Part shown: piece by piece, positions 45,200 to 64,000 of the stretch | How positions within the stretch are numbered: position 1 is the stretch's first letter | How the letters are laid out: each line of letters starts with the position of its first letter | NCBI GenBank assembly: GCA_963823665.1 | Contig: CAWGMQ010000006.1 | Coordinates: forward strand, 608,001 to 672,000 | Direction of reading: 5' to 3' | DNA length: 64,000 nucleotides | Origin: an uncultured Planctomycetota bacterium | Lineage (GTDB): Bacteria; Planctomycetota; Planctomycetia; Isosphaerales; Isosphaeraceae | Notes under the pieces: model-generated | Databases searched by the model: none | Seen by the model: the letters and a program-made list of their open reading frames with translations, nothing else | What the model was told of the DNA's origin: nothing | Position numbers and translations under genes: made by a program

Positions 45200-48100
45200 A
45201 TGAATCCGACCGTCTTAGCGATGAAACGCCCAATCACGACCCTCATGCTGGTCGTGGCGCTGATCAGTGGGGGCATCTATGCCGGGACGAGTATGCGGGT
45301 GGACATCTTCCCCTCGCTGAACGTTCCGAAGATCTACGTGTTCCTCGATTATATCGGGATGAGCCCGGACCAGATGGAGGGGTTCATCGTCAACGAGCTG
45401 GAACTGTATTTCCAGTACGTGGATGGCATCAAGGATATCAATACCCGGAACATTCAGCAGGTGGCCTTGTGCGAGCTTTCGTTCTTCAACGGTACCGACA
45501 TGGGCCAGGCGATGGCCCAGGTGGTAGCGATGTCGGACCGGGCGATGTCGTGGATGCCCAAGGGAACCTTGCCGCCGATGATCATGCGCATGGACGCAGG
45601 CAGCGTCCCCGTCGGCTACCTTGTGTTCGAGAGCACGGAAACCTCGCTGGGGGCGATGGGCGACCTGGCGCAAAACATCATCCGGCCGCTGGTGCAGCAG
45701 AACGTTCCCGGCACCGTCGCGATCTCGCCGTTCGGCCCGAACATGCGGTCGATCGTCGTGAATGTCGATCCCAACAAGCTTCTCGACTACAACCTGACCC
45801 CACAGCAGGTCATCGCAGCCTTGGCCAAGGGGAATACGGTCATTCCGGCGGGCAACATCTACATCAAGGACTCGATGCCGGTCGTCGCCAACAATGCCAC
45901 CGTTGTCGACATCCAGAAACTGGGGAGCATTCCGCTCAAGCTGGAGAGGAACGTCTACCTCCGCGACGTGGCGACCATCCAGGACTACGTGGATATCACG
46001 TATGGATACGCGCTGGTCAACGGCAAGAACTCGGTCTATTTGCCGATCATCAAGAAGGACACCGGATCGACCCTGACCGTCGTGGCCGACATCCACAAGA
46101 ACATGAAGACGTTCCGCGAAGCCGTGCCCGAGGACGTCACGATCAATTTCGAGTTCGATGAGTCGCCCACGGTCGTGGCGGCGGTCAAGAGCGTCGCCAC
46201 CGAGGGGCTGATCGGCGCAGGCTTGACCGGACTGATGATCCTGCTCTTCCTGCGCGACCCGCGCAGCGTGATCGTGGTGGTGTCCAATATTCCGCTGGCG
46301 CTACTGGGGTCGCTCCTTGGGCTCTACATGACGGGCAACACGATCAACATCATGTCGCTGGGCGGGATGGCGCTGGCAATCGGCATCTTGGTCGACGAGG
46401 CGACGGTGACGATCGAGAACGTGCACGTCCAGATGGAGCACACGTCACACATCGCCACCGCGGTGCTGCACGCGAGCAACGCCACGGCGGTTCCCAGGTT
46501 GCTGGCGCTGCTTTGCATCCTGTCGGTATTCATTCCGGCGTTCATCATGGAAGACCCATTGCGGTCGCTCTTCATGCCGCTGACCCTGGGTGTCGGATTT
46601 GCCATGATCTCGTCGTACATTCTCTCGAGCACGTTTGTGCCAATCCTGTGCGTGAGGCTGCTCAAGCACCACGGAGGCCATGGCGAAAAGAAGCAGGGGC
46701 TGTTCGACCGGTTTCTCAAGCTTTACGGCACGGCGGTAAGCTGGTTCGTGCGGCTGCGGTGGCTGACCGTGTCAATCTATCTGATAGCAAGTGCCCTGAT
46801 CCTGGGGGGACTGGGAATCCAGGTCGGCCGGGAGCTGTTCCCTCAGATCGATTCCGGGGAGTTCGTGCTGCGGTTCCGGCCTCCGCCTGGCTCGAACTTC
46901 GAGCTGACGCGGCAGATGGCACTCAAGTGCCTCGAGGAGATCGAGCGCGAGGCAAAGCCGGAAAACATCGAGATCACGATGGGCTACGTCGGGCAGGTTG
47001 CCCCGAACTTCGGCATCGACAACATGGTGCTGTTCATGCGCGGGCCGGACGACGGCCAGTTGCGGGTGGCACTCTCCGAGGCGAGCGGAATCAAGCTCGA
47101 CCGATTCCGCGAGCGCCTGCGCGAAGTGCTGCCCAAGAATGTGATTCCCTGGATGGCGAAGCGGCTCGAGCAGGGCGGTTTGTCCCCTGCGGACGCGCAG
47201 CGACAGGCGAAGTTGTCGACCTTCGGCTTCGAGCCCGGAGACATCGTGACCACCGTCATGAGCTTCGGCTCCTCGACGCCCATCGCCGTGCGAATCGTCG
47301 GCACCGACCTGAAGCTGGTGCGGCAGCACGCGGAGAAGATTGCCGCCAACATGCGGCGCATCCCGTTCCTCAAAGATGTGGGATTTGTCCAGCAGCTTGA
47401 CTACCCCACGGTGGAGCTGGACATCGATCGCGAAAAGGCCGGGCTCTCCGGCGCCCAGGTCGAGGACGTGGGCCACGCGGTTGTCATGGCAACGTCGTCA
47501 ACGCGCTTCGCCTCGCTCAACTACTGGATCGACGTGAAGACCGGCTTCGACTACCTCGTTCAGATCCAGGTACCGCCGCTCAGGATCGAGAAGCCGGAAG
47601 ACGTCGAAACGTTGCCGGTGGAATCGGTCAACCCACTGGTCAATCTGATGATTCGCGACGTGGCGTCGGTTAAGAAGGGTGTGCGGCCCGGCGAGATCGA
47701 CCGTGACATGTCGCAGCGCTATGTGACGCTCACGGCCAATGTCGAGGGCGAGGACATGGGCCGCGCGGCAGACCAGGTCGCCCGTGCGCTCTCCGCCGCC
47801 GGCGATCCGCCCCGCGGAGTGCGCGTACAGACGATGGGCCAGCTTCCCCCGATGCTCGAGATGTTCCAGTCGCTGGGAATCGGGCTTGGCGTCGCCGTGT
47901 TCGTGATCTTCGTGCTCTTGACCGCATATTTTCAGTCGCCGCGGCTCGCGCTGATCTCAATCGGCGCGGTGCCGGGCGTTCTCGCGGGCATCGCGACCAT
48001 TCTCTACTTCACGAACACGTCGCTGAACATCGAATCATTCATGGGTTCGATCATGTGCCTGGGCGTCTCGGTATCGAATTCGGTGATGCTCGTGACCTTC

Positions 48101-48571
48101 ATCGACGAGCACTGGAAGGCCGGCGCCTCTTCGACCGAGGCGGCCATAAAGGGCGCGAGCGAGCGGCTGCGGCCCATTCTGATGACAGCGTGCGCGATGA
48201 CCGTCGGCATGGTGCCGATGGCGCTGGCGCTGGAACGTGGGAGCCAGATGCAGGCGCCGTTGGGCCGGGCGGTCATCGGCGGGCTCGTGATGTCAACGTT
48301 CGCCACATTGCTCATTGTGCCGTCGATCTTCGCAGTTGTGATCGGCAAGAAGGAGGCCCGCTCGGCGTCGATTTACCCGGACGACAAGGAGAGCTCGCAC
48401 TACGACCCGGACGCGTATGCCCACGAAGGCCAGGAAGGCGGCGAGGCCGGCTCGCCGGGATCGCACGCTTCGGCGGCGGGCTCGTCCCAGAAACACGAAG
48501 TGAATGACGACCTGAACCACGGCGACGACGATGCCGGCCATGCGACGGGAGGCGCAACTGATGGACGTTGA
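45200..48571 (+). CDS. RND efflux permease (AcrB/CzcA/NolG superfamily)
   Basis: VDIFP, TINIMSLGGMALAIGILVDEATVTIEN, FPQIDSG, ERLRPILMT, APLGRAVIGG. Confidence 0.95.
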   Translation: MNPTVLAMKRPITTLMLVVALISGGIYAGTSMRVDIFPSLNVPKIYVFLDYIGMSPDQMEGFIVNELELYFQYVDGIKDINTRNIQQVALCELSFFNGTDMGQAMAQVVAMSDRAMSWMPKGTLPPMIMRMDAGSVPVGYLVFESTETSLGAMGDLAQNIIRPLVQQNVPGTVAISPFGPNMRSIVVNVDPNKLLDYNLTPQQVIAALAKGNTVIPAGNIYIKDSMPVVANNATVVDIQKLGSIPLKLERNVYLRDVATIQDYVDITYGYALVNGKNSVYLPIIKKDTGSTLTVVADIHKNMKTFREAVPEDVTINFEFDESPTVVAAVKSVATEGLIGAGLTGLMILLFLRDPRSVIVVVSNIPLALLGSLLGLYMTGNTINIMSLGGMALAIGILVDEATVTIENVHVQMEHTSHIATAVLHASNATAVPRLLALLCILSVFIPAFIMEDPLRSLFMPLTLGVGFAMISSYILSSTFVPILCVRLLKHHGGHGEKKQGLFDRFLKLYGTAVSWFVRLRWLTVSIYLIASALILGGLGIQVGRELFPQIDSGEFVLRFRPPPGSNFELTRQMALKCLEEIEREAKPENIEITMGYVGQVAPNFGIDNMVLFMRGPDDGQLRVALSEASGIKLDRFRERLREVLPKNVIPWMAKRLEQGGLSPADAQRQAKLSTFGFEPGDIVTTVMSFGSSTPIAVRIVGTDLKLVRQHAEKIAANMRRIPFLKDVGFVQQLDYPTVELDIDREKAGLSGAQVEDVGHAVVMATSSTRFASLNYWIDVKTGFDYLVQIQVPPLRIEKPEDVETLPVESVNPLVNLMIRDVASVKKGVRPGEIDRDMSQRYVTLTANVEGEDMGRAADQVARALSAAGDPPRGVRVQTMGQLPPMLEMFQSLGIGLGVAVFVIFVLLTAYFQSPRLALISIGAVPGVLAGIATILYFTNTSLNIESFMGSIMCLGVSVSNSVMLVTFIDEHWKAGASSTEAAIKGASERLRPILMTACAMTVGMVPMALALERGSQMQAPLGRAVIGGLVMSTFATLLIVPSIFAVVIGKKEARSASIYPDDKESSHYDPDAYAHEGQEGGEAGSPGSHASAAGSSQKHEVNDDLNHGDDDAGHATGGATDGR

Positions 48572-50036
48572 TGGGATGACCGCGTGGTGGTTCTTGGGAC
48601 GATCCGTTGCTCGGAGTACTCTGATGCGGCAGGCGCGAGCGTGGCGCGTTTTCGGTCTCGTCGCTTTCGCGGCGACGGCCGGCTGCGGCCAGCAGGCGAA
48701 GATCGACTTCACCGATAACTCAAAACCCCCGCTCGTGCAGGTGATCAAGCCGCCGGTCCGCACCATTGTGCGCATCGTCGGGCAGCCCAGCTTCATCGAG
48801 AGCTTTGAGCGCACGTCGATCTTCAACAAGCCGACCGCTTATATCGATAAGTGGATCGTGGACATCGGCGACAAAGTGAAGAAGAACGACGTGCTGGCCA
48901 ACCTGTTCGCGCCCGAGCTGGTCGAAGAGCTGGCGTCGAAGACGGCGGCAGTCGTGCTCGACCGAGAACGGATCGCACTGGCCAAGGAAGAGGTGGAAGT
49001 GGCCAGGGCGGATGTCGCGGCGGCCGACGCCCGCGTGAAGGAAGCCGAGGAGATCTTGAAGCGGTATCAGGCCGAAGTCGACCGGTGGGATACCGAGGTC
49101 AAGCGGCTCGAGCGTCAAGTTGAGTCCGTCGTGATCGATCGCCGGGTCCTCTTCGAGTCAACCAATCAGCTCCATTCAAGCACCGCGGCGCGCGACAAGG
49201 CGATAGCGACCATCAAGCGGGCAAAGGCAGAGCTGGACTTTGCCCGAGCGACACTTGCCAAGAGCCAGGTGGATGTCAGGGTTACCGAGGCCGACTTGAA
49301 AGTGGCCCAGAGCGAGGAACGATATGCGAAAGCCTGGGTGGACTATCTCACGCTCCGCGCCCCGTTCGACGGCGTGATCACAGCCCGAAACGCAAATACT
49401 TTCGATTTCGTCATGCCCGCCACCGGCGACCCGACGGCGTTCTACCTCTCCCCGGATATCGCGCCCGGGGGTGCGGCGCCGATCTATGTGGTGGACCGGG
49501 TCGACGTCGTCCGGATCTTCGTGGATATCCCCGAGCAGGACGCCAACTTTGTGCACCCGGGGTCCAAAGCGACGGTGATTGCGAAGGCTTACCGCGATGA
49601 GCCGCTCGAAGGCACCGTCACACGCATCGCATGGGCCCTCAATCAGAAGAGCCGCACGCTTCGCGCCGAGATCGACCTCAAGAACCCCGGCAGTCAGCTC
49701 TTGCCGGGGGTATATGCGTACGTCAATTTGAGGATCGAGCGCCCGGGTGTGCGAGCGATGCCTGAGTCGGCGCTTTCGCACTCCGGCGACCAGGCGTATT
49801 ACTGGTCATACGAGAATGGGCGTGCGGTGAAGACGGAGGTACAAACAGGAGTCAGCGACGGCGAGTGGATTGAAGTCATCAATCGCCGAATTCCTTCTTC
49901 CGGCGAAATGGCTGAGGCTGAACCTCCGTGGCAACCGATTGACGGGACGGAGCAAGTAATCCTTGGCGACCTGGCGCTGCACGTCGACGGTGCACCGGTA
50001 GAAGTCGGACCGGCGACGGAGGGCGCAAAACCGTGA
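48561..50036 (+). CDS. RND periplasmic adaptor (MFP), lipoprotein-like
   Basis: ATAGC lipobox, VDIGDKVKK, long coiled coil, LRAPFDGVIT, SRTLRAEIDL, LLPG; start uncertain. Confidence 0.9.
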   Translation: MDVDGMTAWWFLGRSVARSTLMRQARAWRVFGLVAFAATAGCGQQAKIDFTDNSKPPLVQVIKPPVRTIVRIVGQPSFIESFERTSIFNKPTAYIDKWIVDIGDKVKKNDVLANLFAPELVEELASKTAAVVLDRERIALAKEEVEVARADVAAADARVKEAEEILKRYQAEVDRWDTEVKRLERQVESVVIDRRVLFESTNQLHSSTAARDKAIATIKRAKAELDFARATLAKSQVDVRVTEADLKVAQSEERYAKAWVDYLTLRAPFDGVITARNANTFDFVMPATGDPTAFYLSPDIAPGGAAPIYVVDRVDVVRIFVDIPEQDANFVHPGSKATVIAKAYRDEPLEGTVTRIAWALNQKSRTLRAEIDLKNPGSQLLPGVYAYVNLRIERPGVRAMPESALSHSGDQAYYWSYENGRAVKTEVQTGVSDGEWIEVINRRIPSSGEMAEAEPPWQPIDGTEQVILGDLALHVDGAPVEVGPATEGAKP

Positions 50037-51592
50037 TGGGGCACTCCGTCGTCTCGGCAGCCAGACCAGATCGTCCGGCCGGATTCGGCTGGCGCGCGTG
50101 CATTCTCCTCGCGGGCTTCCTCGCAGTTCTGGTGGCGCCGGGATGCGAACAGAAGCCGAAGAATGACTACAAAAGCGTGGACGAGCCGCCGGCCGTGCGC
50201 CTGGTCAAGCCGCAAGTCCGGACTATCGTTCGCACAGTCGCGCAGCCCAGCTTCGTGCAGAGCTTTGAGCGGTCGTCCGTCTTTCCGAAAATGAATGCGT
50301 ATATCCTCAAGTGGAATGTCGACATCGGCGACAAGGTGAAGAAGGGCGATGTGCTCGCCAACCTGTTTGTGCCGGAGCTAATTGCCGACCACCAGACGAA
50401 GCAGGCGATGGTCGTGCTCGACCGGGAGCGCATCGCGCTGGCCAAGGAGGTGGTGGAGGTGGCCAAGGCCGACGTCGAAGCGGCCGTTGCGCGGCTCGAG
50501 GAGGCCCGGGCTGAGCTCGCTGGCTATAAGGCCGAGGCCGAGCGCTGGGACTCGGAGGTCAAGCGGCTCGAAGCCGAGCTCAAAAGGGGTGTCGTCAATC
50601 CGCAGGATGTTCTTCAGACCACGAACCGATGGAAGGCGACAGTCGCCGCGCGGGATTCTGCCGGTGCGACCGTTTTGAAGGCGGATGCCGAGCTGCTCTC
50701 GCGGCGGTCTGCGCTCGCGAAGGCCGGGATCGGCGTGGACGTGGCGGAAGCCGCGCTGAAAGTGGCCCAAAGCGAGGAAAAGCGGCTTCAGGCGTGGGTC
50801 GACTATCTCGTCTTGCCCGCGCCGTACGACGGCATTATCGTCGGCCGCAACGCCAACACGTTCGACCTCGTCCTCCCTGCCAAGGGCGACCCGTCCGCAT
50901 TTTCGCATTCTCCGTTCCTGTCGCCCTCGGGTGCTTCCGCGCCGATCTACGTCGTCGACCGCACCGACATCGTTCGCGTTTTCGTCGATATACCCGAGCG
51001 CGATGCCAACTATGTTCAACAGGGCTCCAAGGCATCGGTGTTGATCAAGGCATTCCGCGACCTGCCGATCTCGGGCACGGTCACGCGCACGTCCTGGGCG
51101 CTGAACATCAAGAGCCGCACGCTTCGCGCCGAGATCGACCTGCCCAACACCAACAGCCAGATCCTGCCGGGGATGTACGCGTATGCCAGCGTGAAAATCG
51201 AGCGACCGGGCGTGTGGACGCTGCCCTTGTCAGCCCTCATGCACCAGGGCGACCGAACCATCCTGCAAGTCGGCGAAAAGGTGTTCTGCTGGGTGTACAA
51301 GGATGGACACGCAAGCCGCATCGAGATGGAAACGGGTGTCATCGGTGACCTCGACCCGGAGAGCGGCGACCAGTGGATCGAGGTCACCAATCGACGCGCC
51401 GCGGGCGCATCGCCGGGGTCATCCGCCGGCGGGCGCTGGACGCCGATTGACGGATCGGAGGACGTCATCCTGGGCGATCTGTCGACTCTCGCCGAAGGCA
51501 ATGCCGTCAAGGTCGCTCCGCCAGCCAAGACAAAGAAGGCTGGAGGCGAACCGCCCGATCGTCGAGCCAGGAAGAGCCAGGCGAAGAAGTGA
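50033..51592 (+). CDS. Second RND periplasmic adaptor (MFP), paralogue of the preceding gene
   Basis: VAPGC lipobox, VDIGDKVKKGDVL, APYDGII, SRTLRAEIDL, ILPGMYA. Confidence 0.9.
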   Translation: MMGHSVVSAARPDRPAGFGWRACILLAGFLAVLVAPGCEQKPKNDYKSVDEPPAVRLVKPQVRTIVRTVAQPSFVQSFERSSVFPKMNAYILKWNVDIGDKVKKGDVLANLFVPELIADHQTKQAMVVLDRERIALAKEVVEVAKADVEAAVARLEEARAELAGYKAEAERWDSEVKRLEAELKRGVVNPQDVLQTTNRWKATVAARDSAGATVLKADAELLSRRSALAKAGIGVDVAEAALKVAQSEEKRLQAWVDYLVLPAPYDGIIVGRNANTFDLVLPAKGDPSAFSHSPFLSPSGASAPIYVVDRTDIVRVFVDIPERDANYVQQGSKASVLIKAFRDLPISGTVTRTSWALNIKSRTLRAEIDLPNTNSQILPGMYAYASVKIERPGVWTLPLSALMHQGDRTILQVGEKVFCWVYKDGHASRIEMETGVIGDLDPESGDQWIEVTNRRAAGASPGSSAGGRWTPIDGSEDVILGDLSTLAEGNAVKVAPPAKTKKAGGEPPDRRARKSQAKK

Positions 51593-51606
51593 TTCCAGCC
51601 GGTGAT

Positions 51607-53336
51607 TCAGCGGGTCGCCGGCGGTGGCCCGTTGCGAACCGCTGGCAGGTAAGACGGTCGCTCGGTATCCACGGGGTCGACGTTGCCCGGGGGCCGGAGA
51701 TAAGTGATCTCCTTGGCGGGGTAACCGAGCGCGTGGAACAGCTCGAACTGGGCACGGTTGTAGTCGGCCACGGTCGTGAAATACTCGTCGAACGCCAGTT
51801 TCAGCAGCCTGAGCGCGTAAACCACTTCCTGGGGACGATAGACCAGGACGAGCGTATCGCCGAAGCGGGTGGTCTGGCGCAGGCCCTCGACGTTTCCGTT
51901 GAAGGCGCTCAAGCCCGTGCGCAGCGAGCGATCGGCCTGGCCCACCCGGGCGGTCGCGGACTGGAGATTTGCATAGGCCTCGGTGACTTCCGCCGCCACC
52001 ATATCCTGGAGCTTGAAGAGCTCGACGATGGTGTGCGACTGGTCGCCGCGCTGCTGCTTGATCCGCGCCAGGTTGCCGATCCCGAAGGCGTCGAGTTGCC
52101 AACTGAGCTGAAGGCTCACGTCCAGGCGACCGGTCCACTGATTGAGGCTGGAGTTGGGTCCGAGGCCGAAGATCCCGGCCTGGGTCATCATGCCGCCGGG
52201 GTCCTGGAAGCCGCCGATGATGACGAGGGGAAGGAACGGGCGCATCTTCTCGCGGCGGATCCGCTCCTGTGCGGCCTGGACTAGGGCACGCTGGGAGGCG
52301 ACGTCGGGGCGGTTGGCGAGCGCGATGCGATGCAAGTCGGGCAGCGGCAGGGCAGGGTCGATCAGGGTGAGCTGAAGATGATCGTGCTCGAGCGGGACGA
52401 CGACGGCGAGGGGGTTGAGGCGGAGCACCCGGGTCAGATTGGCGCTCGAGACGCGCCAGGCTTGACGCGCGGAGGTGGCTTCCTGCTCCAGGTGGGCGAG
52501 CAGGTTCCGGGCCCGCTCGACTTCGACGATCGGGACCAGCTCCTTGCTCAAGCTGGCGATTTGATCGACGAGCTCGCGCCGCGCTCGACACAGTAGAGCG
52601 CTGCGGTATACATGCCGCGGTGCTGGTGGACGCGAAAGTACGCATTGGCGGTCAAGAGCAGAGCGTCGTTCTTGGCGACCTGGACATCCCATTCTCGCGA
52701 ATTAAGCACCTGGCGCGCGACCAGCGGCTCGAAGTAGGCGTCAGTCAGATTCACGAACTGGAAGATGCCGGAGTTAGTGACATCGAGGCCGCCTCCGGCG
52801 TAGAAATAGTTGACGCTCGGCGCGGTCATGACGCCCTTGTTGAAGTCGGGGCCGCCGCCGTCGTGGCGGATGTAATCAGCGGCAAACGTCATCGTCGGGA
52901 TCCAAATCACCTTGGCCCGAGTGAGCTGTGCTTCCGCGACCCAGACACTGGCCTGGGCGGCCGCCACGATCAGCGGGCGAGCGTCGGAAAGCCGCAAGGC
53001 GGTGGCGAGGTTGATCGGAAATCCAACGTCGCTTGGTTCAAGCCGCGCGGGTTTCATTCGCGCGCCTTGGAGGTCCAATGCAGTCCGAGGTTGATCGGCA
53101 GCCAGGCCCGATCGCGGCAGCGGCTGCGGCATGTCCTGGACGCCGGGCCTCCATGGCCGTGGCGGGGGAATCGCCGCTCTCGAAGAAGCCGCCGGCCGGG
53201 CCGGCGGCGGAGGCAGATCAGTCGTCGACCCGGACGACTGCAGAGGCGCTGCCGGCTGGGCGTGGCAGGCAGGCGACTCGAACCAAGGAAGCGTCACGGC
53301 CGCAAGGGTGACCGTGAATCTGACGATTCGATCCAT
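51607..53336 (-). CDS. TolC-family outer membrane protein, paralogue 1 (1-nt frameshift near 52578)
   Basis: Signal peptide MDRIVRF...CHA; PINLATALRL, ALANRPD, DYNRAQFELFHALG, C-terminal NGPPPATR; alignment to the intact paralogue 2 locates the shift. Confidence 0.85.
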
Positions 53337-53457
53337 CGGTCGCGGCTCCTCCCCCCGTCCCTCCTGCTCGGAACCTGCCGCGCAGCGACTCAGGCCTGAC
53401 AGGACGTCAGATGAATTATCGGCTCGTGCCGATCTGGATGTTGATAACGAATGCTCT

Positions 53458-54204
53458 TTAGAAATGTCCCGCGAAATCCCGGCGCTGGGTCCGCGCATCG
53501 ACGATCTCATTGATCGAAGTATTAGGCAGACCAAGTTGCGCGCCCTTGCCCGTTTCATTGCCCTGACCAAACGCCACGATCCAGTTGAGAGTGCGGGCGA
53601 ACGTAGAAGGATTGTACTTGAGCCGGAGGAAGATGCCCGATGGTCCGGGTACGGCTGTGGATGACCTGCCGCCCAGGTTGAACTGGAATCCGCCCGCGAC
53701 GAAGGAGACGGCGTAATATTTTTTTGTAAGGACGTAGAAGGCGAGAATTTGCCCCGGCTTCCACTGCTGATCGCCTGCCAGAATGGGAAAGCCCGCGAAG
53801 GATCGGGGTTGGTTCGTCATTCGGACGGTGAAACCGTCGCTGGCAGTGAAGGTCTGTGCCGTGCCGTTCTTGACGGTGACAAAGGTGACGTTGTAAACCT
53901 GGCCGGGCACCGGTTTTTTGCCCTGGACAAGGACTTGCTGGAACGGAGGAACGAGCTTGTAGGGTGTCTGCCAGGGCGTGTTGGTGACGCGAAACGCGAG
54001 GTAGCCAAAGGCACCGGGCGTGTGCGGTTGACGATGGCGGCCCGCAAGCGCCGACACCGCCTGGCTCCCGGCGATGTCGGAGGCGAGCGAGTGAACATTT
54101 GACGGTTTCGCAGTACGTGGGGTGACTGCGCCGGCACTGAGCAGTTGTTTTGCTTCAAATCGTTCGAGCGCGGGACGGAACGTCGTGATTGAGCGGCGGC
54201 GCAC
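53458..54204 (-). CDS. Unknown-family protein with an LExKQLLS export-like motif, paralogue 1
   Basis: FRPALERFEAKQLLS; core PPFQQVLVQ...PVPGQVYNV...QTFTA...FYVLTKKYY...PGPSGIFLRLKYNP shared with 59643 and 62697. Confidence 0.8.
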   Translation of the reverse strand: MRRRSITTFRPALERFEAKQLLSAGAVTPRTAKPSNVHSLASDIAGSQAVSALAGRHRQPHTPGAFGYLAFRVTNTPWQTPYKLVPPFQQVLVQGKKPVPGQVYNVTFVTVKNGTAQTFTASDGFTVRMTNQPRSFAGFPILAGDQQWKPGQILAFYVLTKKYYAVSFVAGGFQFNLGGRSSTAVPGPSGIFLRLKYNPSTFARTLNWIVAFGQGNETGKGAQLGLPNTSINEIVDARTQRRDFAGHF

Positions 54205-54364
54205 GGATCGACCCCTCTTGAGCTCGGGAATTCACCAATCCCGCGTCTTCAATACGTCGGCACTTCACCCGCGTGGCGGGAGCGAGTGCGACGAGAGTCG
54301 CGGCATTTGGGGACGACCGAGCCAAGAACGCCGATTGTGTCAATCATTCATCATGAAGCATGGA

Positions 54365-56275
54365 TTAGCGTGTTGCCGGTGGCGGCCCATTGCCGACTGG
54401 CGGCAAGTAATCGGGCCGTGACGTATCCACCGGCACGACGGTACCCGGAGGCCGGACGTAGGTGATCTCGCGGGCAGGATAGCCGAGTGCGTGGAACAAC
54501 TCGAACTGGGCGCGGTTGTAGTCGGCGACGGTCGTGAAGTACTCGTCGAAGGAAATCTTGAGGAGCTGGAGAGCGAAGACGACTTCCTGGGGCCGGTTGA
54601 TGAGGACCAGGACCTCGCCAAAACGGGTGGTATGCTGGAGGCCCTCGAAGCTTCCGTTGAAGGTGGCAATGCCCGAGCGCAAGGCGCGCTCGGCCTGAGT
54701 GACCCTTGCCGCGGCCGACTGGAGATCCGCCTGCGCCTGGGTGACCTCGGCCGCAACCATGTCCTGGACCTTGAAGAAGTCGATGATCGCCTTGGATTGC
54801 TCGCCGCGCTGCTCCTTGATCCGTGCCAGGTTTCCAATACCGAGTCCTTCGAGCTGCCACATCAATTGCAGGCTGACGTCGTCGCGCCCGGTCCACTGGT
54901 TCAACTTGTTGTTGGTGCCGAAACCGAAGACCCCGGCTTGCATCAGTTCGTCGGGCGTCTGGAAGCCGTTGATCAAGACGGTTGGGAGGAGCATGCGACC
55001 CCTCTCGCGGCGGATTCGCTGCAGGGCCGCCTGAACGAGCGCCTGGTGGGATTCCAGCTCTGGGCGGTTGGTGAGCGCGACGATGTGCAGGTCGGGGAGG
55101 TCCCGGACGGGGTCAATCAAGGTGATCTGGAGATGATCGTGCTCGAGCGGGACGACCACCGCGCGGGGGTTGAGACGGAGAACGCGCGTGAGCCGGGCGC
55201 TCGAAACCCGCCACGCTTGCCGCGCCGCGGTGGCTTGCTGCTCGAGGTCGGCGAGGAGGTTGCGGGCGCGATCGACTTCGACGATGGGGACCAGCTCGTG
55301 GCTCAAGCTGGCGATTCGCTGGACCAAGTCGCGCCCGCGTGTGACACAGTAGAGGGCTCCTGCATACATCCCCCGGTGCTGGTGGACGTTGAAATAGGAT
55401 TCGGCGGTCATGAGCAGAGCATCGTTCTTGGCGGTCTGGATATCCCACTGGCGGGAATTCAGGTCCTGCCGCTTGACGAGGGGCTCGAAGAACACGTCGG
55501 TCAAGGCGACGATCTGCCACAGGCCGCCACCACCGTAGAAGAAATTGAGGCTTGGTGCGGTGAGCACGCCCTTGTTAAAGTCGGGTCCGCCGCCGTCATG
55601 CCGGATATAATCGCCGCCCATGTTGAGCTCGGGCACCCACAGGACCTTGGCCCGGGTGAGCTGCGCTTCGGCCACCCACACACTGGCCTGGGCGGCGGCC
55701 ACGATCAGAGGCCTGGCGTCGGAAAGCCGCAAGGCGGTGGCGAGGTTGATGGGAAACTCGAGGTCAGAGGGCTCCAGCGGCGCGGGCTTGAGCTGCGAGG
55801 TGAGGTTTGCGGAGCTGGAATCGAAGGCTGCAGGCGACGTTGTGCCAGATTCGCCCGGCACTTGCACGTTCCTCGGTGCCGGCAGGAAGGTGTGCAGGAA
55901 CGGGGGCGCGGGCACCGGCCATTCGCTCGGCAGGCGCATCGGGCGTGCCGCCAGCAGTTGCCCCCCGGCAGCCTCTGGAGGTGACCGGAATTCGCTGGGA
56001 AGTCGAATGGAGTGCAGCGCCAGCACCGGCACGTCGGGCGCGAGCGCCTCCGACACCGGCGCGACGGCTACTCGCGTCGTTCGAAACGGAAGTGGTGCGG
56101 GCACGCGGTGACCGGGCACCGGAGTCGCCGCCCCAGGCGGAGGCGAGAGCGGCGACTGGCCCGGTGATGTCGATGGCGGCCCGGCGGGCTGTGTCTGAGC
56201 CGCGCACAACGCGGGCAGAGCCCATACGAGCAGCATGGCCGTGCCCGGAATCCATCGCGGCGCAGGTCGTTCCAT
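54365..56275 (-). CDS. TolC-family outer membrane protein, paralogue 2 (intact)
   Basis: Signal peptide, Pro-rich linker, PINLATALRL, ALTNRPEL, DYNRAQFELFHALG, GNGPPPATR; GAGG RBS. Confidence 0.9.
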   Translation of the reverse strand: MERPAPRWIPGTAMLLVWALPALCAAQTQPAGPPSTSPGQSPLSPPPGAATPVPGHRVPAPLPFRTTRVAVAPVSEALAPDVPVLALHSIRLPSEFRSPPEAAGGQLLAARPMRLPSEWPVPAPPFLHTFLPAPRNVQVPGESGTTSPAAFDSSSANLTSQLKPAPLEPSDLEFPINLATALRLSDARPLIVAAAQASVWVAEAQLTRAKVLWVPELNMGGDYIRHDGGGPDFNKGVLTAPSLNFFYGGGGLWQIVALTDVFFEPLVKRQDLNSRQWDIQTAKNDALLMTAESYFNVHQHRGMYAGALYCVTRGRDLVQRIASLSHELVPIVEVDRARNLLADLEQQATAARQAWRVSSARLTRVLRLNPRAVVVPLEHDHLQITLIDPVRDLPDLHIVALTNRPELESHQALVQAALQRIRRERGRMLLPTVLINGFQTPDELMQAGVFGFGTNNKLNQWTGRDDVSLQLMWQLEGLGIGNLARIKEQRGEQSKAIIDFFKVQDMVAAEVTQAQADLQSAAARVTQAERALRSGIATFNGSFEGLQHTTRFGEVLVLINRPQEVVFALQLLKISFDEYFTTVADYNRAQFELFHALGYPAREITYVRPPGTVVPVDTSRPDYLPPVGNGPPPATR

Positions 56276-56392
56276 CAGACTCACCTCTTCCCTCTTGGAC
56301 AGCGCGGTGCTTCGATCAGCCGCGCCGAGCTGGCCGGATATTCCTGATTGATCGGCTAATCGGGGTAGGGAGGATGATCCGAAACATGGTTC

Positions 56393-56521
56393 ACTCCGCC
56401 GAGCCCGGTTTTCGACTCGCACCGCGCGCGGGCACGGCTGCGCTAATTGTAGGGTGGGTGAAACCCACCGATTACTCGTCCGAGCCCAGATTTCGAGCGA
56501 TACCGCGAGCGGGCACGGCTG
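56393..56521. repeat. 48-bp imperfect direct repeat flanking a GTAG-type REP hairpin
   Basis: 56393-56440 vs 56474-56521 match at 38/48 positions; GTAG-GGTGGGT-GAA-ACCCACC at 56449-56469. Confidence 0.75.
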
Positions 56522-56665
56522 AATGGGCACAAATGATCAGTATCGTCACATTTCGGGTAATCCCGTACACCGCGAAATGCCGATGAATCGATAAATCCGG
56601 CTCATGCGGAGCGGTCGCTACCACCGTCACTGCGTTCGATTGCCTGTTCATGGAGAGGGGTGTGC

Positions 56666-58393
56666 ATGATGGAACGGTCGACCCGGGCATCGACGATCGT
56701 GATCGCCGTTCTGATACTCTGGATCGCGCCGGCAATGTGTTTGGCGCGACAACAGTCGCCGGCGTCAACCGCCTCGCCGATACCCCAACCTCGGCCCTGG
56801 CCGGGTACGAGCTCGACGCCAGTTCAGGCGCAGCCTCGCCCTTCTCCAACCACGCCCGCGACGCCCGCCGTCCAACCTGGACGCGCCCAAGGGGCCGGGA
56901 CGTTGCCAAGCCCCCTGCTGGAACGTCCGCCTATCACCGGGGAGCGCGAAGCGCTGGACATTGTAAGGATCAAGCCGGCGCCGCTGGAGCCGACAGACTT
57001 CCGCTTTCCGATCAATCTGGCCACCGCATTGCGTCTTGCCGACGCCCGGCCGCTGATCGTGGCCGCCGCACAGGCGACAGTCTGGGTTGCCGAGGCGCAG
57101 CTCACCCGGGCCAAGGTGATCTGGGTTCCCATGCTCAACGTGGGCTTCGACTATACGCGACACGACGGCGGCGGCCCGGACTTCAACAAGGGCATCATGA
57201 CCGCGCCGAGCGTGAACTTCTTCTACGGCGGCGGTGGATTGATCGCGAACGTCCCCCTGACCGACGCCTACTTCGCGCCCCTGGTCGCGCGGCAGATCTT
57301 GAACGCCCAGCACGCGACCATCCAGACCGCCAAGAACGACGCTTTGCAGATGACAGCCGACACCTACTTCCTCGTCCATCAATTCAGGGGACAGTATGCG
57401 GGCGCCCTCTACTGCGTTGAGCGAGGCCACGACCTGGTCGAGCGCATCAGACAGTTGAGCCGCGAGTTCGTCCCCACGGTCGAGGTGGATCGGGCCCGGA
57501 ACTTGGTCGCGGACCTCGAGCAGCAGGCCACCTCTGCGCGAATCGTGGCGCGTCCAGAGCGCCGACCTCACGCAAGTCTTGCGGCTTGATCCCCGCGCGG
57601 TCGTCGTGCCGCTGGAGCACGATCACCTCCAGATCACCTTGCTGGACCCCGCCCGGACGCTGGACGACCTGATCCCAATCGGCCTGATGAATCGCCCAGA
57701 GCTGGCCGCGAACCGGGCGTTCGTAGAGGCGGTGGCCCAGCGGATCCGCCAGGAGAAGGGGCGCATGCTCCTTCCCAGCATCCTGCTCAACGGCTTTCAA
57801 ACCCCGTACGAGCTGATCCAGGCGGGGATTTTCGGCATGGGCACCAACAGCAACCTCAACCAGTGGGTAGGCCGTGACGATTTCAGCGTTCAGCCCCTCT
57901 GGCAGCTCGAAGCCTGTGGGATCGGCAACCTCGCGCGGATCAAGGAGCAGCGCGGCGAGCAGTCGCGGGCCATCATCGAGCTTTTCATGACGCAGGACCG
58001 GGTCGCGGGCGACGTGACCCGGGCGCAGGCCCGCCTCCAGTCGGCAACGGCACGCGTGAGCCAGGCCGATCGCGCTTGCGCACGGCTGTTATCACTTTCA
58101 ACGGGAACTTCGAGGGCCTGCGCCAGAGCACCCGCCTGGGGAATGTGTTGGTCCTGGTGAACCGCCCTCAAGAGGTGGTCTTCGCACTCCAGCTCATGAA
58201 GCTCGCCTTCGACGACTACTTCCAGACGGTTGCCGACTACAACCGGGCGCAGTTCGAGTTGTTCCGTGCGCTGGGCTACCCCGCACGCGAGCTCGCCTAC
58301 TTGCACCCGCCCGGCGAAGTCCAGCCGGTGAACACAGAGCGGCCTGACTATCTGCCCCCAGTCGGCAATGGGCCGCCCCCGGCAACCCGCTGA
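56666..58393 (+). CDS. TolC-family outer membrane protein, paralogue 3 (frameshifts near 57540 and 58078)
   Basis: Three consecutive ORFs (56660, 57579, 58076) align end to end with paralogue 2; ends GNGPPPATR. Confidence 0.85.
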
Positions 58394-58627
58394 CGCAAAC
58401 ACCTGGCCTCCCCCACGGCCAACTCTCTTTTTCGCCAAAGCCTCTCTGGCTTACTCAAGCTGCGCTATCCCGTTCTTTGCATTGAGCCAGCACCAGCAAG
58501 ATTTTGTGATATATCAAGATAAGCGTAGCATAACGTTGCCCGACCTCGGGACGCCGGGGCGGGCCTCAAGGAGGTATTACGCCGAGTCTCACGCACAGAG
58601 ACTCTGCATTGAACGAGGGATTCACCG

Positions 58628-59524
58628 ATGTCGTCGACCTTGCCATGCGCGCGCAGATTCTCGATCGTGGCGCTTTCAATGGTTCTGGCCAGTTGCTCAC
58701 TCGCTGGAAAGTCGGCGATGGCTCAGGACGTCGGTGTAAGCCCGGGCTTTTTCCAGCAGCACGTGACGACCGACGGCACCTTGAGCTACGGCGGAGACGA
58801 GATCTATTCGGGATACCCGGGCTTCGGTCTCAGGTTTCACCCCGGGTATGGGTACGGAGGTAAAGCCCTCGGCACAGGGGCCGTGGGCGGCTACCCGTTC
58901 TATGGCGGGCCCGGCTACCCGCACCCTGCGCCCGTGCTGAGAAGGTGCGGCGGAATCACTCCGTTTCTGTTTTATGGCGGCCCCGACTATCCGCGTTTTG
59001 GCTACAGCAATTACTTCACCGAGGTCGGCCCGCTTGTCGTCCCCCATCCGGTCGCTCTACAAACCACGGGTCATGACCAGGCCCATGCCGCCGGCAGCGC
59101 CGTTTATCCCTACAATATTGGGTACGGACCGTATACAGGGGTCCTTCCTTATCCCGAGAGTTTCTTCGCACCTTACACGGCCGCGGCCGCGACAAGCGGA
59201 TCATCGGCCGCAATCCCGGCCCTCTCTCCGAGCGTAACAAGTAGTCCCGCTCCAGTCCCCAATCTTGGGATCGACGAGGAATCCGTCGTCGACCCCGATG
59301 GTGTGCGTGCAGTCAAGGTCGCGCGTGTCTATCCTGGGACCGCGGCGGAAACCGCCGGCTTGAGGCCAGGCGACGTGATCCGCTCAATCAACGGCTATCG
59401 CACCGAAGAGCCCGGAAACTTGGCCTGGATCATCATCAACAAGGCGCCCGACAAGGTTCTGACAATCAACGTGCGCACCGCGACCGACGGTCAAGCGCAC
59501 ACAATCACGGCCAAGCTGCCATAA
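58628..59524 (+). CDS. Secreted Gly/Tyr/Pro-rich protein with a C-terminal PDZ domain
   Basis: Signal peptide ending AMA; LGID...VKVARVYPGTAAETAGLRPGDVIRSING. Confidence 0.85.
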   Translation: MSSTLPCARRFSIVALSMVLASCSLAGKSAMAQDVGVSPGFFQQHVTTDGTLSYGGDEIYSGYPGFGLRFHPGYGYGGKALGTGAVGGYPFYGGPGYPHPAPVLRRCGGITPFLFYGGPDYPRFGYSNYFTEVGPLVVPHPVALQTTGHDQAHAAGSAVYPYNIGYGPYTGVLPYPESFFAPYTAAAATSGSSAAIPALSPSVTSSPAPVPNLGIDEESVVDPDGVRAVKVARVYPGTAAETAGLRPGDVIRSINGYRTEEPGNLAWIIINKAPDKVLTINVRTATDGQAHTITAKLP

Positions 59525-59642
59525 CCAGGAAGTGATGGTGCGGTCCTACGCTAGGAAGGAGTGGTGTCAAGTCGGGCGAAATGCCGACATATAGGAATTG
59601 TAACGCCCGTATCTTCTCGCGGGCCAAGTAGGAGTTTCATTC

Positions 59643-60428
59643 ATGCATGGACGCGCGTCGTTGAAACTCCGTCCCGGTCTCGAGCGACTCGAAGCGAAGC
59701 AACTGCTCAGCGCCGGTACGCAGGCGAGCCATGTCGCGCAGCTCGAGAAGAGGCACTCGGCGGTCGTGGCCCGGCACACGGCCGCGACACCCACTTCCGC
59801 CACGGCCGCCAGCGAGAGCCTCGCGACAGACACGCCTGGGCCGGCAACCGCGGTTCACCGGCCGCGACAACAGCTACCTCGTACGTTCCTCGGCTACCGC
59901 ATTACCAACCCGACAATGCTCAAGCCGATCCGCCTGATTCCTCCGTTCGGCCAGGTCCTGGTGCAAACCGTGCAACCAAAGCCCGGTCAAACATACAACG
60001 TACTCGACGTGGTCGTGCAGAACGGGTCGGGGCAGACATTCACCGCGAAGAACAACTTTACCGTAAGATTCCCCAATAGACCCGGAGCCCCTCTTTTCCC
60101 GGTCCTCACGGGTAACGAGAAGTGGCTACCCCATCACTGGATCGTGTTCTACGTTCTGACCAAGCAGTACTATCCCCTTACGCAGATTCAGGGGGGTTTC
60201 CAGTTCGACCTGGGCGGCAGGAGCACAACCCTCGTGCCCGGACCATCAGCCATTTATCTCCGGATCAAATATAATCCGGCGACGTTCGCCCGCACACTGA
60301 ATCACATCGTCGCCTTTGGCCCGGGCACACAGTACGGCACCGGCCCGCCGTTTGGCCTACCTACGACAAATATTAACCGGATCGTCTCCGGAAGTACCCT
60401 CAGGCGCGACTATGGCGGCCATTTCTGA
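59643..60428 (+). CDS. Unknown-family protein with an LExKQLLS motif, paralogue 2
   Basis: LRPGLERLEAKQLLS; conserved core; C-terminus RRDYGGHF matches RRDFAGHF of paralogue 1; AGGAG RBS. Confidence 0.8.
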   Translation: MHGRASLKLRPGLERLEAKQLLSAGTQASHVAQLEKRHSAVVARHTAATPTSATAASESLATDTPGPATAVHRPRQQLPRTFLGYRITNPTMLKPIRLIPPFGQVLVQTVQPKPGQTYNVLDVVVQNGSGQTFTAKNNFTVRFPNRPGAPLFPVLTGNEKWLPHHWIVFYVLTKQYYPLTQIQGGFQFDLGGRSTTLVPGPSAIYLRIKYNPATFARTLNHIVAFGPGTQYGTGPPFGLPTTNINRIVSGSTLRRDYGGHF

Positions 60429-60665
60429 TCGCCCTCCAGGTGAGACGCTTGTTTGGGCGAACCGCCCCGTGCGCCGGGGCCCTGGCCGCCAGGCGGCCGC
60501 TCAAAGCGCCCGCCCGACAGGATGATAGAGGCGGGACCGTTAAAATCGATGCATTCTTCATCAACATCACCACTGCGACAAACCGATTAAACCTGAGTCC
60601 CGTCAAAATCTCGATTCCGCGGTGTGGGTATTGTTCACCGGGGCTCACGGGAGGAAGCTCGCCCG

Positions 60666-62497
60666 ATGGAACGATTCGGCAAGTTGATGGCTGTATTCGT
60701 GGTCGCGGTGCTGCCTTGGTTCGAGGCGTCGCCGTGCCGTGCCCAGTCGTCAGCCGCTTTACCGCCGACATCGCCCCCGGCGCGACAAACCCCCTCGTCA
60801 TCGACGCCGCCGGCCCAGGGGCCTTCGACTGGGGCAAGCGCGACGACACCGTTGGCGCCGCCACGGCCCTGGCCCGCAGCGACGTCGGCGTTGTCATCCC
60901 CCGCGCGCAGCCGCCCGCCGCCGTTCGGGAGGCGAGCGAGGCGACCGGGCCGCGAACGGCTGCGTCCGGAGCGCGCGTACCACCGCCGCGCCCCTTTCGA
61001 CCGCAAAGCGAGCGGACCGCCCCGCCGGCTCCGGCCCTCTCCGCGAACGAGGCTGACCACATCTTCGCGCTAAAGCCCGCGCCCTTGGAGCCGGCCGACC
61101 TCCGCTTTCCGATCAATCTGGCCACCGCCTTGCGTCTTTCCGACGCTCGCCCGCTGATCGTGGCCGCCGCCGAGGCCAGTGTATGGGTCGCTGAGGCGCA
61201 GCTCACGCGGGCCAAGGTCCTCTGGGTTCCTTCGTTCATGCTCGGTGCCGATTTAATCCGCCACGACGGCGGCGGCCCGGACATCAATAAGGGCATCATG
61301 ACCGTCAACAGCACGAACTTCTTTTACGGCGGTGCCGGGTTGTGGGAGCTGGTCAGCTTGACCGACGCTTACTTCGAGCCCCTGGCGGCGCGCCAGGTTC
61401 TGAACTCCCGCCAATGGGAAATTCAGACCGCCAAGAACAACGCCCTGCTCATGACTGCCGACGCCTACTTCAAGGTTCATCAATATCGAGGAATGTACGC
61501 CGGCGCCCTCTATGCCGTCGAACGGGGACACGACTTGGTCGAGCGGATCGCGCAATTGAGCCGCGACCTGGTCCCCGCGGTTGAGGTTGACCGGGCCCGG
61601 AACATGGTTGCCGACCTCGAGCAGCAGGCCACCTCCGCCCGCGAATCCTGGCGCGTCTCGAGCGCCAACCTCACCCAGATCCTCCGGCTCGACCCTCGCG
61701 CCGTCGTCGTGCCGCTCGAGCACGATCATCTTCAGCTCACCTTGATCGACCCCGCGGCGTCGCTCCATGAACTGACACGGGTCGCCGTGACCAACCGCCC
61801 CGAGCTCGCCTCACGCCGCGCGCTCGTCCAGGCGGCCGAAGTGCGAGTTCGCCGGGAGAAGTGGCGGCCCTTCCTGCCTTTGGTCGCGGTCAATGGCTTC
61901 CAGAGCGCCGGCATGTACTACAACATCGGAATATTCGGCCTCGGGCCCAACAGCAGCCTCAACCAGTATGTCGGCCGCGACGACGTTTCCTTGCAGTGCG
62001 TCTGGCAGATCGATGCGTTCGGAATCGGAAACCTCGCGCGGATCAAGCAGCAGCGAGGAGATCAGTCGAGCGCCATCGTCGAGCTTTTCAAGGCCCAGGA
62101 CACGGTCGCGAAGGAAGTGACGGCGGCTCAGGCGCACGTCCAGTCGGCCGCGGCCCGCGTCAGCCAGGCCCAGCGTGCCTTGCGAACCGGCATCATCACC
62201 TTCAACGGGCACATCGAGGGCATCGCCCAGACCACGCGATTGGAGAACTTCTTGATCATGGTCTACCGCCCGCAGGAAGCGGTCTACTCACTCGAGCTCT
62301 TGAAGCTGGCCTTCGACGAGTATTTTACCACCGTGAACGATTACAACCGGGCGCAGTTCGAGTTGTTCCACGCACTGGGTTATCCCGCCGGCGAAATCGC
62401 CATCCGCCGGCCCGCCGGCGAAATTCAGCCTGTCGATCTGGAACGTCCTGCCTACCTGCCTCGCGTGGGCAATGGGCCGCCTCCCGCGACCCGCTAA
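60666..62497 (+). CDS. TolC-family outer membrane protein, paralogue 4 (frameshift in the Pro-rich linker, about 60900-60960)
   Basis: Signal peptide MERFGKL...LPWFEASPCRAQ matches LPWFESPACHAQ of paralogue 1 but is in a different frame from the PINLATALRL...GNGPPPATR body. Confidence 0.85.
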
Positions 62498-62606
62498 CCG
62501 CCCGGGTAGATTCAATCGGCCTGACCCAGCCGCCAACCTCCCTTGCCCCGCTGCCGGCCTATTGCCATAGGCGCGTATAATCGCATGGCGATTGATCACG
62601 CACCCG

Positions 62607-62710
62607 CCCTATGCGATTGCAACCATGTTGAGACGAGCCTCATAGTCGCCCTTCGCTCCGCGAAAGGGTTCCTCCCCTCCCTATGCGATTGCAACCATGT
62701 TGAGACGAGC
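62607..62710. repeat. Perfect 32-bp direct repeat flanking a 40-bp hairpin-containing insert
   Basis: CCCTATGCGATTGCAACCATGTTGAGACGAGC at 62607-62638 and 62679-62710; the insert contains CCCTTCGCTCCGCGAAAGGG. Confidence 0.9.
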
Positions 62711-63377
62711 AGCCAGCGGATTTCGTCCCGTCGTCGAGCGAATGGAAGAGAAGCAACTGCTTAGCGCGGGCCTGGTAGCGGCTCACGCAGCCAGCCTCGC
62801 GTCAGGAATGCGGACTCCCAGCCATTCCCCAGCCGAGACACAGCGCGGCCTGTTCATGCTGTCTCGTATCACGAACACGGCATTCCCCTACACCGTCGAC
62901 TTGAAGCCGCCGTTCCAGCAAGTGTTGGTTCAAGCCGCCCAACCTGTGCCAGGCCAGATGTACAACGTACTCGAAGTCAGCGTGAGGAATGAAACGAGGC
63001 AGACGTTCACGGCCGCCAATGGGTTTTCCGTGCGGCTTGCGACCAGCGGCTCCGCGATTCCTCGCTCCTTCCCCATTCTGACAGCGAACGAGCAATGGAA
63101 ACCGCAGCAATTCATCACATTTTACGTTCTTACCAAGAAATACTATCCGGTGAGTCCGGTTCTGTCGGGAGGTTTCACGTTCAGCTTTGATCCGGGGCGG
63201 GTCGCGATACCGGGACCTTCGGGAATCGCGCTGCGGATCAAGTATAATCCGGCCAAGTTTGCCAGGACGCTCGACTGGCTGGTTGCGTATGGCCCGGGTG
63301 CAGAAGGGGGCGCGGGGGCGAAGCTGGGTTTGCCGGACACCGCCATTTGGCAGTTCACGGCGCCGAAGCCGGTGTAG
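62697..63377 (+). CDS. Unknown-family protein with an MExKQLLS motif, paralogue 3
   Basis: FRPVVERMEEKQLLS; same conserved core as 53458 and 59643. Confidence 0.8.
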   Translation: MLRRAASGFRPVVERMEEKQLLSAGLVAAHAASLASGMRTPSHSPAETQRGLFMLSRITNTAFPYTVDLKPPFQQVLVQAAQPVPGQMYNVLEVSVRNETRQTFTAANGFSVRLATSGSAIPRSFPILTANEQWKPQQFITFYVLTKKYYPVSPVLSGGFTFSFDPGRVAIPGPSGIALRIKYNPAKFARTLDWLVAYGPGAEGGAGAKLGLPDTAIWQFTAPKPV

Positions 63378-63390
63378 TGGGGCAAATTCA

Positions 63391-64000
63391 CTACAACAGC
63401 TCAGCGGGCGGATCAGGTTTTTCGGGCGCAGCCGCAGCGTCGGGTACGGCAGCCGGAGTGGGCAGCGCTTCTGGGCCAGGGCCCTCGGCCGGGGAGTGCG
63501 GCGTGTGTGCGCCGCCATCGCCGGTGTCCGCGGACAATAATGGATCGTAGAACCGGCTGTGCACGTCGCCTGGGTAGATCGACGGAGATCGTGCGGCCTT
63601 GTTGCCGATGACGACCGCGAAGACCGAGGGGACGACCAGCAACGTGGCGAATGTCGAGAACACCAACCCGCCGATGACTGCCAGCCCCAGCGGGGCCTGC
63701 ATCTGGCTTCCTTTCTCGAGCGCCAGCGCCATGGGCACCATGCCGACGGTCATCGCGCAGGCGGTCATCAGGATCGCCCGTAGTCGCTCACCGGCCCCGA
63801 CCACGGCCGCCTGGGTCGACGACGCTCCGGCTTTCCAGTGCTCGTTCATGAACGTGACGAGCAACACCGAATTCGACACCGAGACCCCCAGTGACATGAT
63901 CGAGCCCATGAACGACTCGATGTTGAGCGACGTGTTGGTGAAGTAGAGGATGATGGCGATGCCCGCCAGGACGCCCGGCACGGAGCTCACGGAGATCAAT
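63391..64000 (-). CDS. Second RND permease, C-terminal part (runs off the window)
   Basis: VPGVLAGI...TSLNIESFMGSIM.LGVSVSNSV, ERLRAILMT, QMQAPLG; closely similar to the C-terminus of 45200-48571. Confidence 0.92.
   Translation of the reverse strand, partial: LISVSSVPGVLAGIAIILYFTNTSLNIESFMGSIMSLGVSVSNSVLLVTFMNEHWKAGASSTQAAVVGAGERLRAILMTACAMTVGMVPMALALEKGSQMQAPLGLAVIGGLVFSTFATLLVVPSVFAVVIGNKAARSPSIYPGDVHSRFYDPLLSADTGDGGAHTPHSPAEGPGPEALPTPAAVPDAAAAPEKPDPPAELL

Follow-up and report, generated by a model that had tools for sequence, protein, structure and literature searches.

The last third of a 64,000-nucleotide stretch from an uncultured planctomycete of the Isosphaeraceae (the whole stretch is called the window here; G000:C6:608001-672000, from the 16.5 Mb genome G000 in 12 contigs) carries a cluster of genes for RND permeases, membrane fusion proteins (MFPs, the periplasmic adaptors), TolC-family outer-membrane factors (OMFs), three small proteins of a family termed X, and a PDZ-domain protein termed G. 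The cluster is best read as a conserved Isosphaeraceae module, present in two old copies placed head to head, which consists of RND, MFP, TolC-A, X, TolC-B and the Gly/Tyr/Pro-rich protein G. The module is a real and conserved RND pump variant that has a fixed pair of TolC types, A and B, and two accessory families; the gene set is maintained across genomes, and pumps with an A/B pair and no X also exist. It is apparently undescribed, and no description was found in the open-access literature at the level of titles and abstracts, subscription papers being outside the scope of the search. The explanation that we favour, with a probability of about 0.5, is that the module exports a small molecule through a mixed A/B channel and that X is a partner exported by a general route for proteins with an N-terminal LExR motif.

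According to this explanation, a proton-driven RND permease would export a small molecule through the probably mixed outer channel, and a metal ion or a small organic compound would be the default substrate for a permease of this type. In at least ten relatives G ends in a 20-residue tail shared with TolC, and for this reason the Sec-signalled G may dock on the channel from the periplasm. X would be secreted by the near-universal GAF-HlyD/HlyD/M50-HlyD system, not through the permease, and would probably be a surface partner that acts outside the cell on the channel or on the exported material.

Linkage of X and G to the pump genes

An initial annotation, made from the sequence alone, had given the gene order and strands as RND+, MFP+, MFP+, TolC1-, X1-, TolC2-, TolC3+, PDZ+, X2+, TolC4+, X3+, RND-, and open reading frames (ORFs) and profile matches bore this out. 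The resulting pattern, B < X < A / A > G > X > B > X, corresponds to two A-X-B units, each of which points towards a permease operon.

When all GTDB genomes were scanned with selection on X alone, 67 X loci were obtained, in which neighbours were counted within 8 kb. The TolC subfamily of the cluster was present at 58 of these loci (at least two such TolCs at 51), RND or MFP genes at 49 and the gene for G at 43, and the anchor X was flanked by two same-strand TolCs in 42. The simplest form of the locus is one same-strand run, RND > MFP > TolC > X > TolC > PDZ; in many cases A-X-B units are oriented towards the RND operon instead of sharing its strand. At the level of genomes, X and the TolC subfamily were both present in 67 and both absent from 49 of 121 genomes, so that 116 were concordant; X only was found in one and TolC only in four, and these five discordant genomes are either fragmented or only 70-91% complete. 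The proposed tie of X to this RND/TolC subfamily was therefore upheld by the profile search and by co-occurrence, orphan X genes being the minority. The module is also carried by cultured strains (records L148 and L158); one of them (L148, NZ_CP195108.1) has the complete simple operon on a plasmid, and thus the module can be plasmid-borne.

The X genes of the window (X1, 53458..54204, minus strand; X2, 59643..60428, plus strand; X3, 62697..63377, plus strand) are the only three copies in G000. Their products are 51-53% identical to one another and begin with LExxExKQLLS; comparison of the paralogues shows that X1 ends in DFAGHF and X2 in DYGGHF, and that X3 is short-tailed and lacks the DFxGHF end. 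The best hydropathy over 11 residues is 0.55-1.67, compared to 2.3-3.3 for three of the TolCs and the PDZ protein, in agreement with the earlier description of three paralogues with an LExKQLLS start and no hydrophobic signal. The family is small, with 1009 matches among 7999 scored candidates that form 154 clusters at 50% identity. Its homologues are labelled Isosphaeraceae and were found in 73 of the 121 genomes of this family (68 strong hits); a strict first look at other genomes of the phylum gave 0 of 400. The N-terminal pattern LExLExKxLLS fits 85 of 113 aligned members, and a D[FYL]x[GA][HYR]F end is present in 91.

AlphaFold2 assigns low confidence to residues 1-60 of X and predicts a beta-rich domain at about 65-240, with a mean predicted local distance difference test score (pLDDT) of 77; X1 would thus consist of an LExR-type N-terminus, a disordered linker and this domain. 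Foldseek gave no structural match at E<=0.001; the best VIA row had Z 4.1, a root-mean-square deviation of 3.0 and 84 aligned, with Ig-like and pilin-like rows. No sequence match was found in Pfam, NCBIfam, the PDB sequences or the ESM Atlas; the profile Planc_extracel (PF07595) reached 2 of the 113 members weakly (best E 0.088), and the N-terminus of X resembles the Planc_extracel consensus RRLxxExLExRxLLA printed in PMC8567305. The X profile also hits, weakly (E 2e-8), the protease-like protein P0263, in which seven Ig-like-looking repeats match X positions 85-131.

The G protein of the window (58628..59524, plus strand) has a Sec-type signal, a conserved Gly/Tyr/Pro-rich region and a C-terminal PDZ domain. 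The conserved part of the family is the Gly/Tyr/Pro-rich region after the signal, the PDZ domain being optional; the region has no Pfam match, and an AlphaFold2 model from 22 sequences gave a pLDDT below 50 over most of residues 1-208, so that it is predicted to be disordered, and unfolded, when alone. The G proteins of ten relatives (L116, L118, L123, L124, L126, L128, L130, L135, L136 and L137) end in the 20-residue TolC tail (RPxYLPPVGNGPPPATR), once without a PDZ domain. A TolC-like tail was present in 6 of 120 database homologues of G and is absent from the copy in the window. The tail may serve for docking, or it may be left over from recombination with the adjacent gene. Binding of the C-terminal Phe of X by the PDZ domain was considered as a requirement and rejected: 70 of the 120 homologues lack the PDZ pattern (a crude pattern, and some of the proteins are partial), and at three loci (L142, L147, L156) a Phe-ended X stands alongside a PDZ-less G, which shows that the PDZ domain is not needed. 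The module thus brings two undescribed families, X and the Gly/Tyr/Pro-rich region of G, that are tied to a pump.

Pairing of two TolC types

The four TolC genes of the window are TolC1 (51607..53336, minus strand; type B, loop GFQDPGGM), TolC2 (54365..56275, minus strand; type A, GFQTPDE), TolC3 (56666..58393, plus strand; type A, GFQTPYE) and TolC4 (60666..62497, plus strand; type B, GFQSAGM). TolC1, TolC2 and TolC4 score 33.5-41.6 bits with PF02321 (cut-off 22), and the pieces of TolC3 13-20 bits; the N-termini are hydrophobic, and the proteins combine the profile with the export signal of an outer-membrane factor. TolC2 is intact, with a Sec-type signal and a Pro-rich arm. The initial count of four TolC genes stands in that these are four old paralogues, not an assembly duplication, since their cores are only 72-75% identical as DNA; it needs the amendment that three of them are frameshifted in the assembly, with one or two letters missing in short repeats. 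The sites lie near 52578 in TolC1, near 57535 and 58075 in TolC3, and near 60900 in TolC4, where the signal and the Pro-rich arm are separated from the core and the true start at 60666 is in a different frame. The frameshifts are probably assembly errors, as judged from the two TolC3 sites, which alone were compared with a relative: the missing letters are present there in run X1 contigs of this organism, which is about 98% identical. Many RND genes elsewhere in G000 are likewise split.

The cores of the two types are 65-75% identical, and in a tree of 95 TolC rows many upstream copies group across genera (support 89), as do downstream copies (support 92). Outer loop 2, which is GFQTPxE in A and lacks the Glu in B, separates the types cleanly. 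Pairs were scored when adjacent same-strand TolCs had both loops parsed by a regular expression, which missed many B loops; the scorable pairs consisted of one A and one non-A in 27 of 28 cases at X loci and in 16 of 17 at X-less loci (43 of 45 in total), and no B-B combination occurred among the 45. Core position 288 is Glu in all 40 A rows, and the commonest residues in 36 B rows are Met (22), Gly (7) and Phe (4). Seven of the nine columns diagnostic of A or B lie in predicted barrel strands or in loop 2, the strand positions being judged from sequence. An N-terminal motif, S[TSA]VSxxIxRF, is present in 20 of 37 non-A TolCs and in 0 of 41 A.

Among more distant pumps of the subfamily (47-66% identical), none has more than one TolC nearby, and close ones mostly have the pair. 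A/B pairs with 56-60% identity were also found in two other families (genomes G774 and G517). X was not found in these two genomes, in a search that had no positive control, and the pair is therefore probably older than X and independent of it. A first search of the phylum gave no TolC relative in 300 genomes; the sample was too narrow, since G517 and G774 hold pairs.

TolC-family channels have been described as homotrimers. The initial annotation had raised the possibility of heteromeric channels, and the fixed pairing lends it real support. Because most of the A/B-diagnostic residues lie in barrel strands and outer loop 2, A and B may co-assemble, and we put the chance that the two types build one mixed outer channel at somewhat below even. 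A prediction of the complex of TolC-A, TolC-B and X, trimmed to 999 residues, scored 0.00, which is evidence neither way. The excerpt of PMC8277102 mentions heterotrimers for permeases only.

A rather unlikely alternative is an ordinary pump with two interchangeable homotrimeric channels, in which X and G would be co-regulated passengers that do not contact the pump. The similarity of the A and B cores, which are homogenised in eight pairs, the fact that the wider subfamily works with one TolC, and the existence of X-less loci with two TolCs and of orphan X loci would fit such an arrangement, and there is a precedent in Caulobacter, in which one type I secretion system has two alternative outer-membrane proteins, RsaFa and RsaFb (PMC3034196). 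However, if the copies were redundant, an A next to a B would not be expected in 43 of 45 pairs over three families. RsaFb is unlinked, whereas A and B nearly always adjoin; three genomes with an orphan X (G002, G037, G098) still hold a TolC A/B pair elsewhere; and G bears the TolC tail. Kept in three planctomycete families, the pair offers a clear-cut candidate for a heteromeric outer channel, and one that can be tested.

It should be noted that several points weigh against the favoured explanation of a mixed channel with X as its partner. At eight of the 67 X loci, RND, MFP and TolC genes are all missing within 8 kb; one of these loci is on a short contig. Linkage by itself would make operon genes occur together, and related genomes are not independent; as linked genes are gained and lost jointly, the joint presence of X and TolC is not independent proof of function. 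In the TolC tree, the cores of eight pairs group by genome and not by type, which indicates that the helical parts were exchanged or re-duplicated. The loop expression scored only 28 pairs from 51 X loci with multiple TolCs; in the rows used for the diagnostic columns, A and B were set by gene order after the motif had been noticed; and the locus of one genome (G019) holds a B gene only. The contacts between A, B, X and G are deduced from the genes for every pair, and the role of the M50-HlyD locus in PMC4452313 is a proposed link to secretion, so that its export of LExR proteins is putative.

Two further groups of loci were seen. A distant RND locus in G000 (C10:1482083-1485422, L015) has two tandem TolCs that are 27-29% identical to TolC4. 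A protein termed Y, which crosses the membrane once and has a Ser/Lys-rich linker and a coiled end, is encoded in a second module type near an MFP or a TolC pair, mostly without X (L223, L224, L228-L233, L235, L007, L110).

The permease and the export of LExR proteins

RND permease 1 (RND1; 45200..48571, plus strand) matches the AcrB/AcrD/AcrF family profile PF00873 with 552.5 bits (cut-off 28), and its alignment to solved pumps shows that RLRPILMT and the equivalents of Asp407, Arg971 and Thr978 are kept. The DE in transmembrane segment (TM) 4 and the Ser at the Lys940 site, reported initially, were confirmed for RND1 (LVDEAT in TM4, GVSVSNS in TM10); RND2 has DM, not DE, in TM4. The nearest solved permease is ZneA (E 4e-64), a zinc pump that likewise lacks the Lys. 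The relay triad Asp407-Asp408-Lys940 of the HAE-1 class, as described in PMC8277102, is replaced by Asp-Glu and Ser, and RND1 falls below the HAE-1 cut-offs of NCBIfam (322.6 versus 1250 for NF000282, 284 versus 940 for TIGR00915, 447.5 versus 1250 for NF033617), so that the permease is indeed not AcrB-like. It also misses the HME (CzcA/CusA) cut-off (TIGR00914, 352.7 versus 701.45) and lies below every NCBIfam RND cut-off. The two periplasmic regions contain 27 Met, with a Met-rich segment at 102-138, and any metal-binding site would be putative.

DE in TM4 and the absence of the Lys from TM10 are found throughout the subfamily, including X-less pumps with a single TolC and a plasmid pump of the alphaproteobacterium Phyllobacterium; among 60 close permeases TM4 has DE in 47, DM in 11, NM in one and NE in one. 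These residues, being common to X-less pumps, are therefore uninformative on protein export. We know of no protein substrate for RND permeases of this type. At several loci a DM (or NM) permease stands beside a DE type (G000:C6:671391-674747; L006 on C10; L008 on C4), and by analogy with MdtBC such neighbours possibly form a heteromeric permease.

The nearest plasmid relatives of the permease (31-46% identical) occur in Spirosoma, Fibrella, Methylocystis and Methylocella. According to Table S1 of PMC10872679, these genera and four planctomycetes hold genes of RND clade F, which Bodilis et al. (2024) describe there as Cus3ABC, candidate metal pumps. Hymenobacter is also among the permease relatives, and its two genomes listed in the excerpt have no clade F gene. 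The resemblance of the permease to clade F was compared by genus distribution, not by sequence placement, and is only suggestive.

The motif RRLxxExLExRxLLA is a supposed export signal, with 52 such genes in Tuwongella (PMC8567305), and PMC10952558 treats Planc_extracel as a signal peptide. A preprint (10.64898/2026.03.19.712371) connects giant LEPRxLL proteins with a TolC encoded nearby, as a hypothesis only. LExR N-termini were present in all four tested Isosphaeraceae genomes without the module (G015, G017, G057, G059) and were not found in the one genome tested from outside the family; the module is thus not present wherever LExR proteins are. Regional samples of G000, 20 evenly spaced regions of 400 kb in all, contained four LExR genes (about one per 100 kb), which suggests roughly a hundred in the whole genome, compared with three X.

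That the RND-MFP-TolC machine itself exports X by way of its LExR N-terminus, as had been suggested initially, now appears improbable. X is tightly linked to the pump, has no Sec signal, and has conserved, predicted-disordered N- and C-termini, and seven independent non-X LExR genes lie less than 5 kb from A/B TolCs (in 430 kb), some in the slot of X (L220/L221, L200, L226). An enrichment of LExR genes near A/B TolCs had p 0.02 against pooled flanks but did not exceed the evenly spaced regions of G000 (p 0.32), so that it is at most putative. LExR proteins exist without the module, A/B pairs without X occur in G774 and G517, and the residues of the permease are not special to X loci. No ABC gene is present among the ORFs of window positions 45200-64000 and of C6:670001-690000, as type I secretion would require, and PMC8277102 describes permeases of this RND type as antiporters for small molecules or metals. 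Among LExR genes adjoining X-less A/B pairs on the same strand are L200:4111-7599 (1130 amino acids), L220:12420 (445), L221:6850 (442) and one near 13860 in L226 (303, with a dockerin). Still less probable is the more elaborate form in which an RND pump with an obligate A/B heterotrimer would secrete or display folded LExR-tagged X, with G and its PDZ domain as a periplasmic adaptor. If X were indeed exported by RND and A/B, this would be the first RND machine that exports a protein, and a second, specialised route for LExR proteins.

The initial idea that the pump could bear on LExR export was not supported, and the GAF-HlyD, HlyD and M50-HlyD trio (G000:C5:992540-998113; L248:7540-13113), which is separate from the RND cluster, is the best candidate exporter, as it fits the distribution of the motif much better than the module. 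An M50-HlyD gene was found in 114 of the 121 genomes and in 47 of 47 good ones, 69-98% identical and mostly single-copy; among these 47, X was found in 23 (weak motif-only hits included) and a cluster-type TolC in 22. PMC4452313 (Kamneva 2015) proposes a SecA2/GAF-HlyD/HlyD/M50-HlyD locus as a secretion-related module only. G000 has a second, shortened SecA (C10:2030504-2032401, L185; frameshifted), and no HlyD gene adjoins it among ORFs of at least 250 amino acids. The presence of M50-HlyD in all 47 good Isosphaeraceae genomes points to where LExR export should be sought, and the small X would be a convenient reporter for it.

Least probable of all is that A/B, X and G are an outer-membrane module that the M50-HlyD system has co-opted for the display of X, with a partly historical link to RND: no TolC was found among the genes called in 35 kb at the M50-HlyD locus of G000, an A/B pair stands beside a different adaptor and an LExR-dockerin protein in L226, and A-X-B units often oppose the RND operon in strand, but M50-HlyD is present where A/B is absent, so that it has another channel, and in the simplest genomes the full set (RND, MFP, A, X, B and G) forms one same-strand run.

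Cluster layout and comparison with known systems

RND1 is followed on the plus strand by MFP 1 (48531..50036; TIGR01730, 115.6 bits versus 94.9) and MFP 2 (50033..51592; 95.6 versus 94.9). The spacer between the divergent A-X-B units (56276..56665) is likely to contain divergent promoters; motif scans for promoters and terminators, including the spacer, were at or below the level of shuffled sequence and yielded no consensus promoter. The 3' end of RND2 occupies 63391..64000 (minus strand), the remainder of the gene lying beyond the window. The initial annotation had called for inspection of the sequence past 64000, and the cluster indeed runs on to G000:C6:684662: C6:672001-684662 contains the rest of RND2, three MFPs, a frameshifted RND3 and a fifth TolC fragment. 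The whole cluster thus has three RND, five MFP, four TolC and a fragment, three X and one PDZ gene. Directly upstream of RND1, positions 40709-44698 (plus strand) encode a 1329-amino-acid protein with DUF4145, an nSTAND1 NTPase and an FGE-sulfatase-like domain, and 38656-40323 (minus strand) resembles a methyltransferase gene in sequence.

The module shares with AcrAB-TolC, CusCBA and ZneCAB the RND permease, the adaptor, the outer-membrane factor and the equivalents of Asp407, Arg971 and Thr978; it differs from them by two fixed OMF types, Sec-type signals followed by long Pro-rich arms, two accessory genes, DE or DM in TM4, and Ser for Lys940. In the excerpt on clade F (PMC10872679), paired OMFs or accessories are not mentioned. 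MdtABC and MuxABC likewise have two fixed paralogous subunit types side by side, and DE and DM permeases share some module loci, but mixing concerns the permease in those systems, whereas the fixed pair of the module is the outer channel. In Caulobacter, RsaDE is one exporter served by two TolC-family proteins, RsaFa and RsaFb; it is, however, an ABC-driven protein exporter, and its outer-membrane proteins are alternatives, one of them unlinked (PMC3034196). Finally, the motif RRLxxExLExRxLLA of the LEPRxLL proteins (PMC8567305) is present in X in variant form, and G000 has the HlyD trio of the SecA2/GAF-HlyD/HlyD/M50-HlyD locus (PMC4452313), with the second SecA on C10; that locus, in contrast, has no RND and is separate from the cluster, and X is small (230-260 amino acids), with a domain of no known family.

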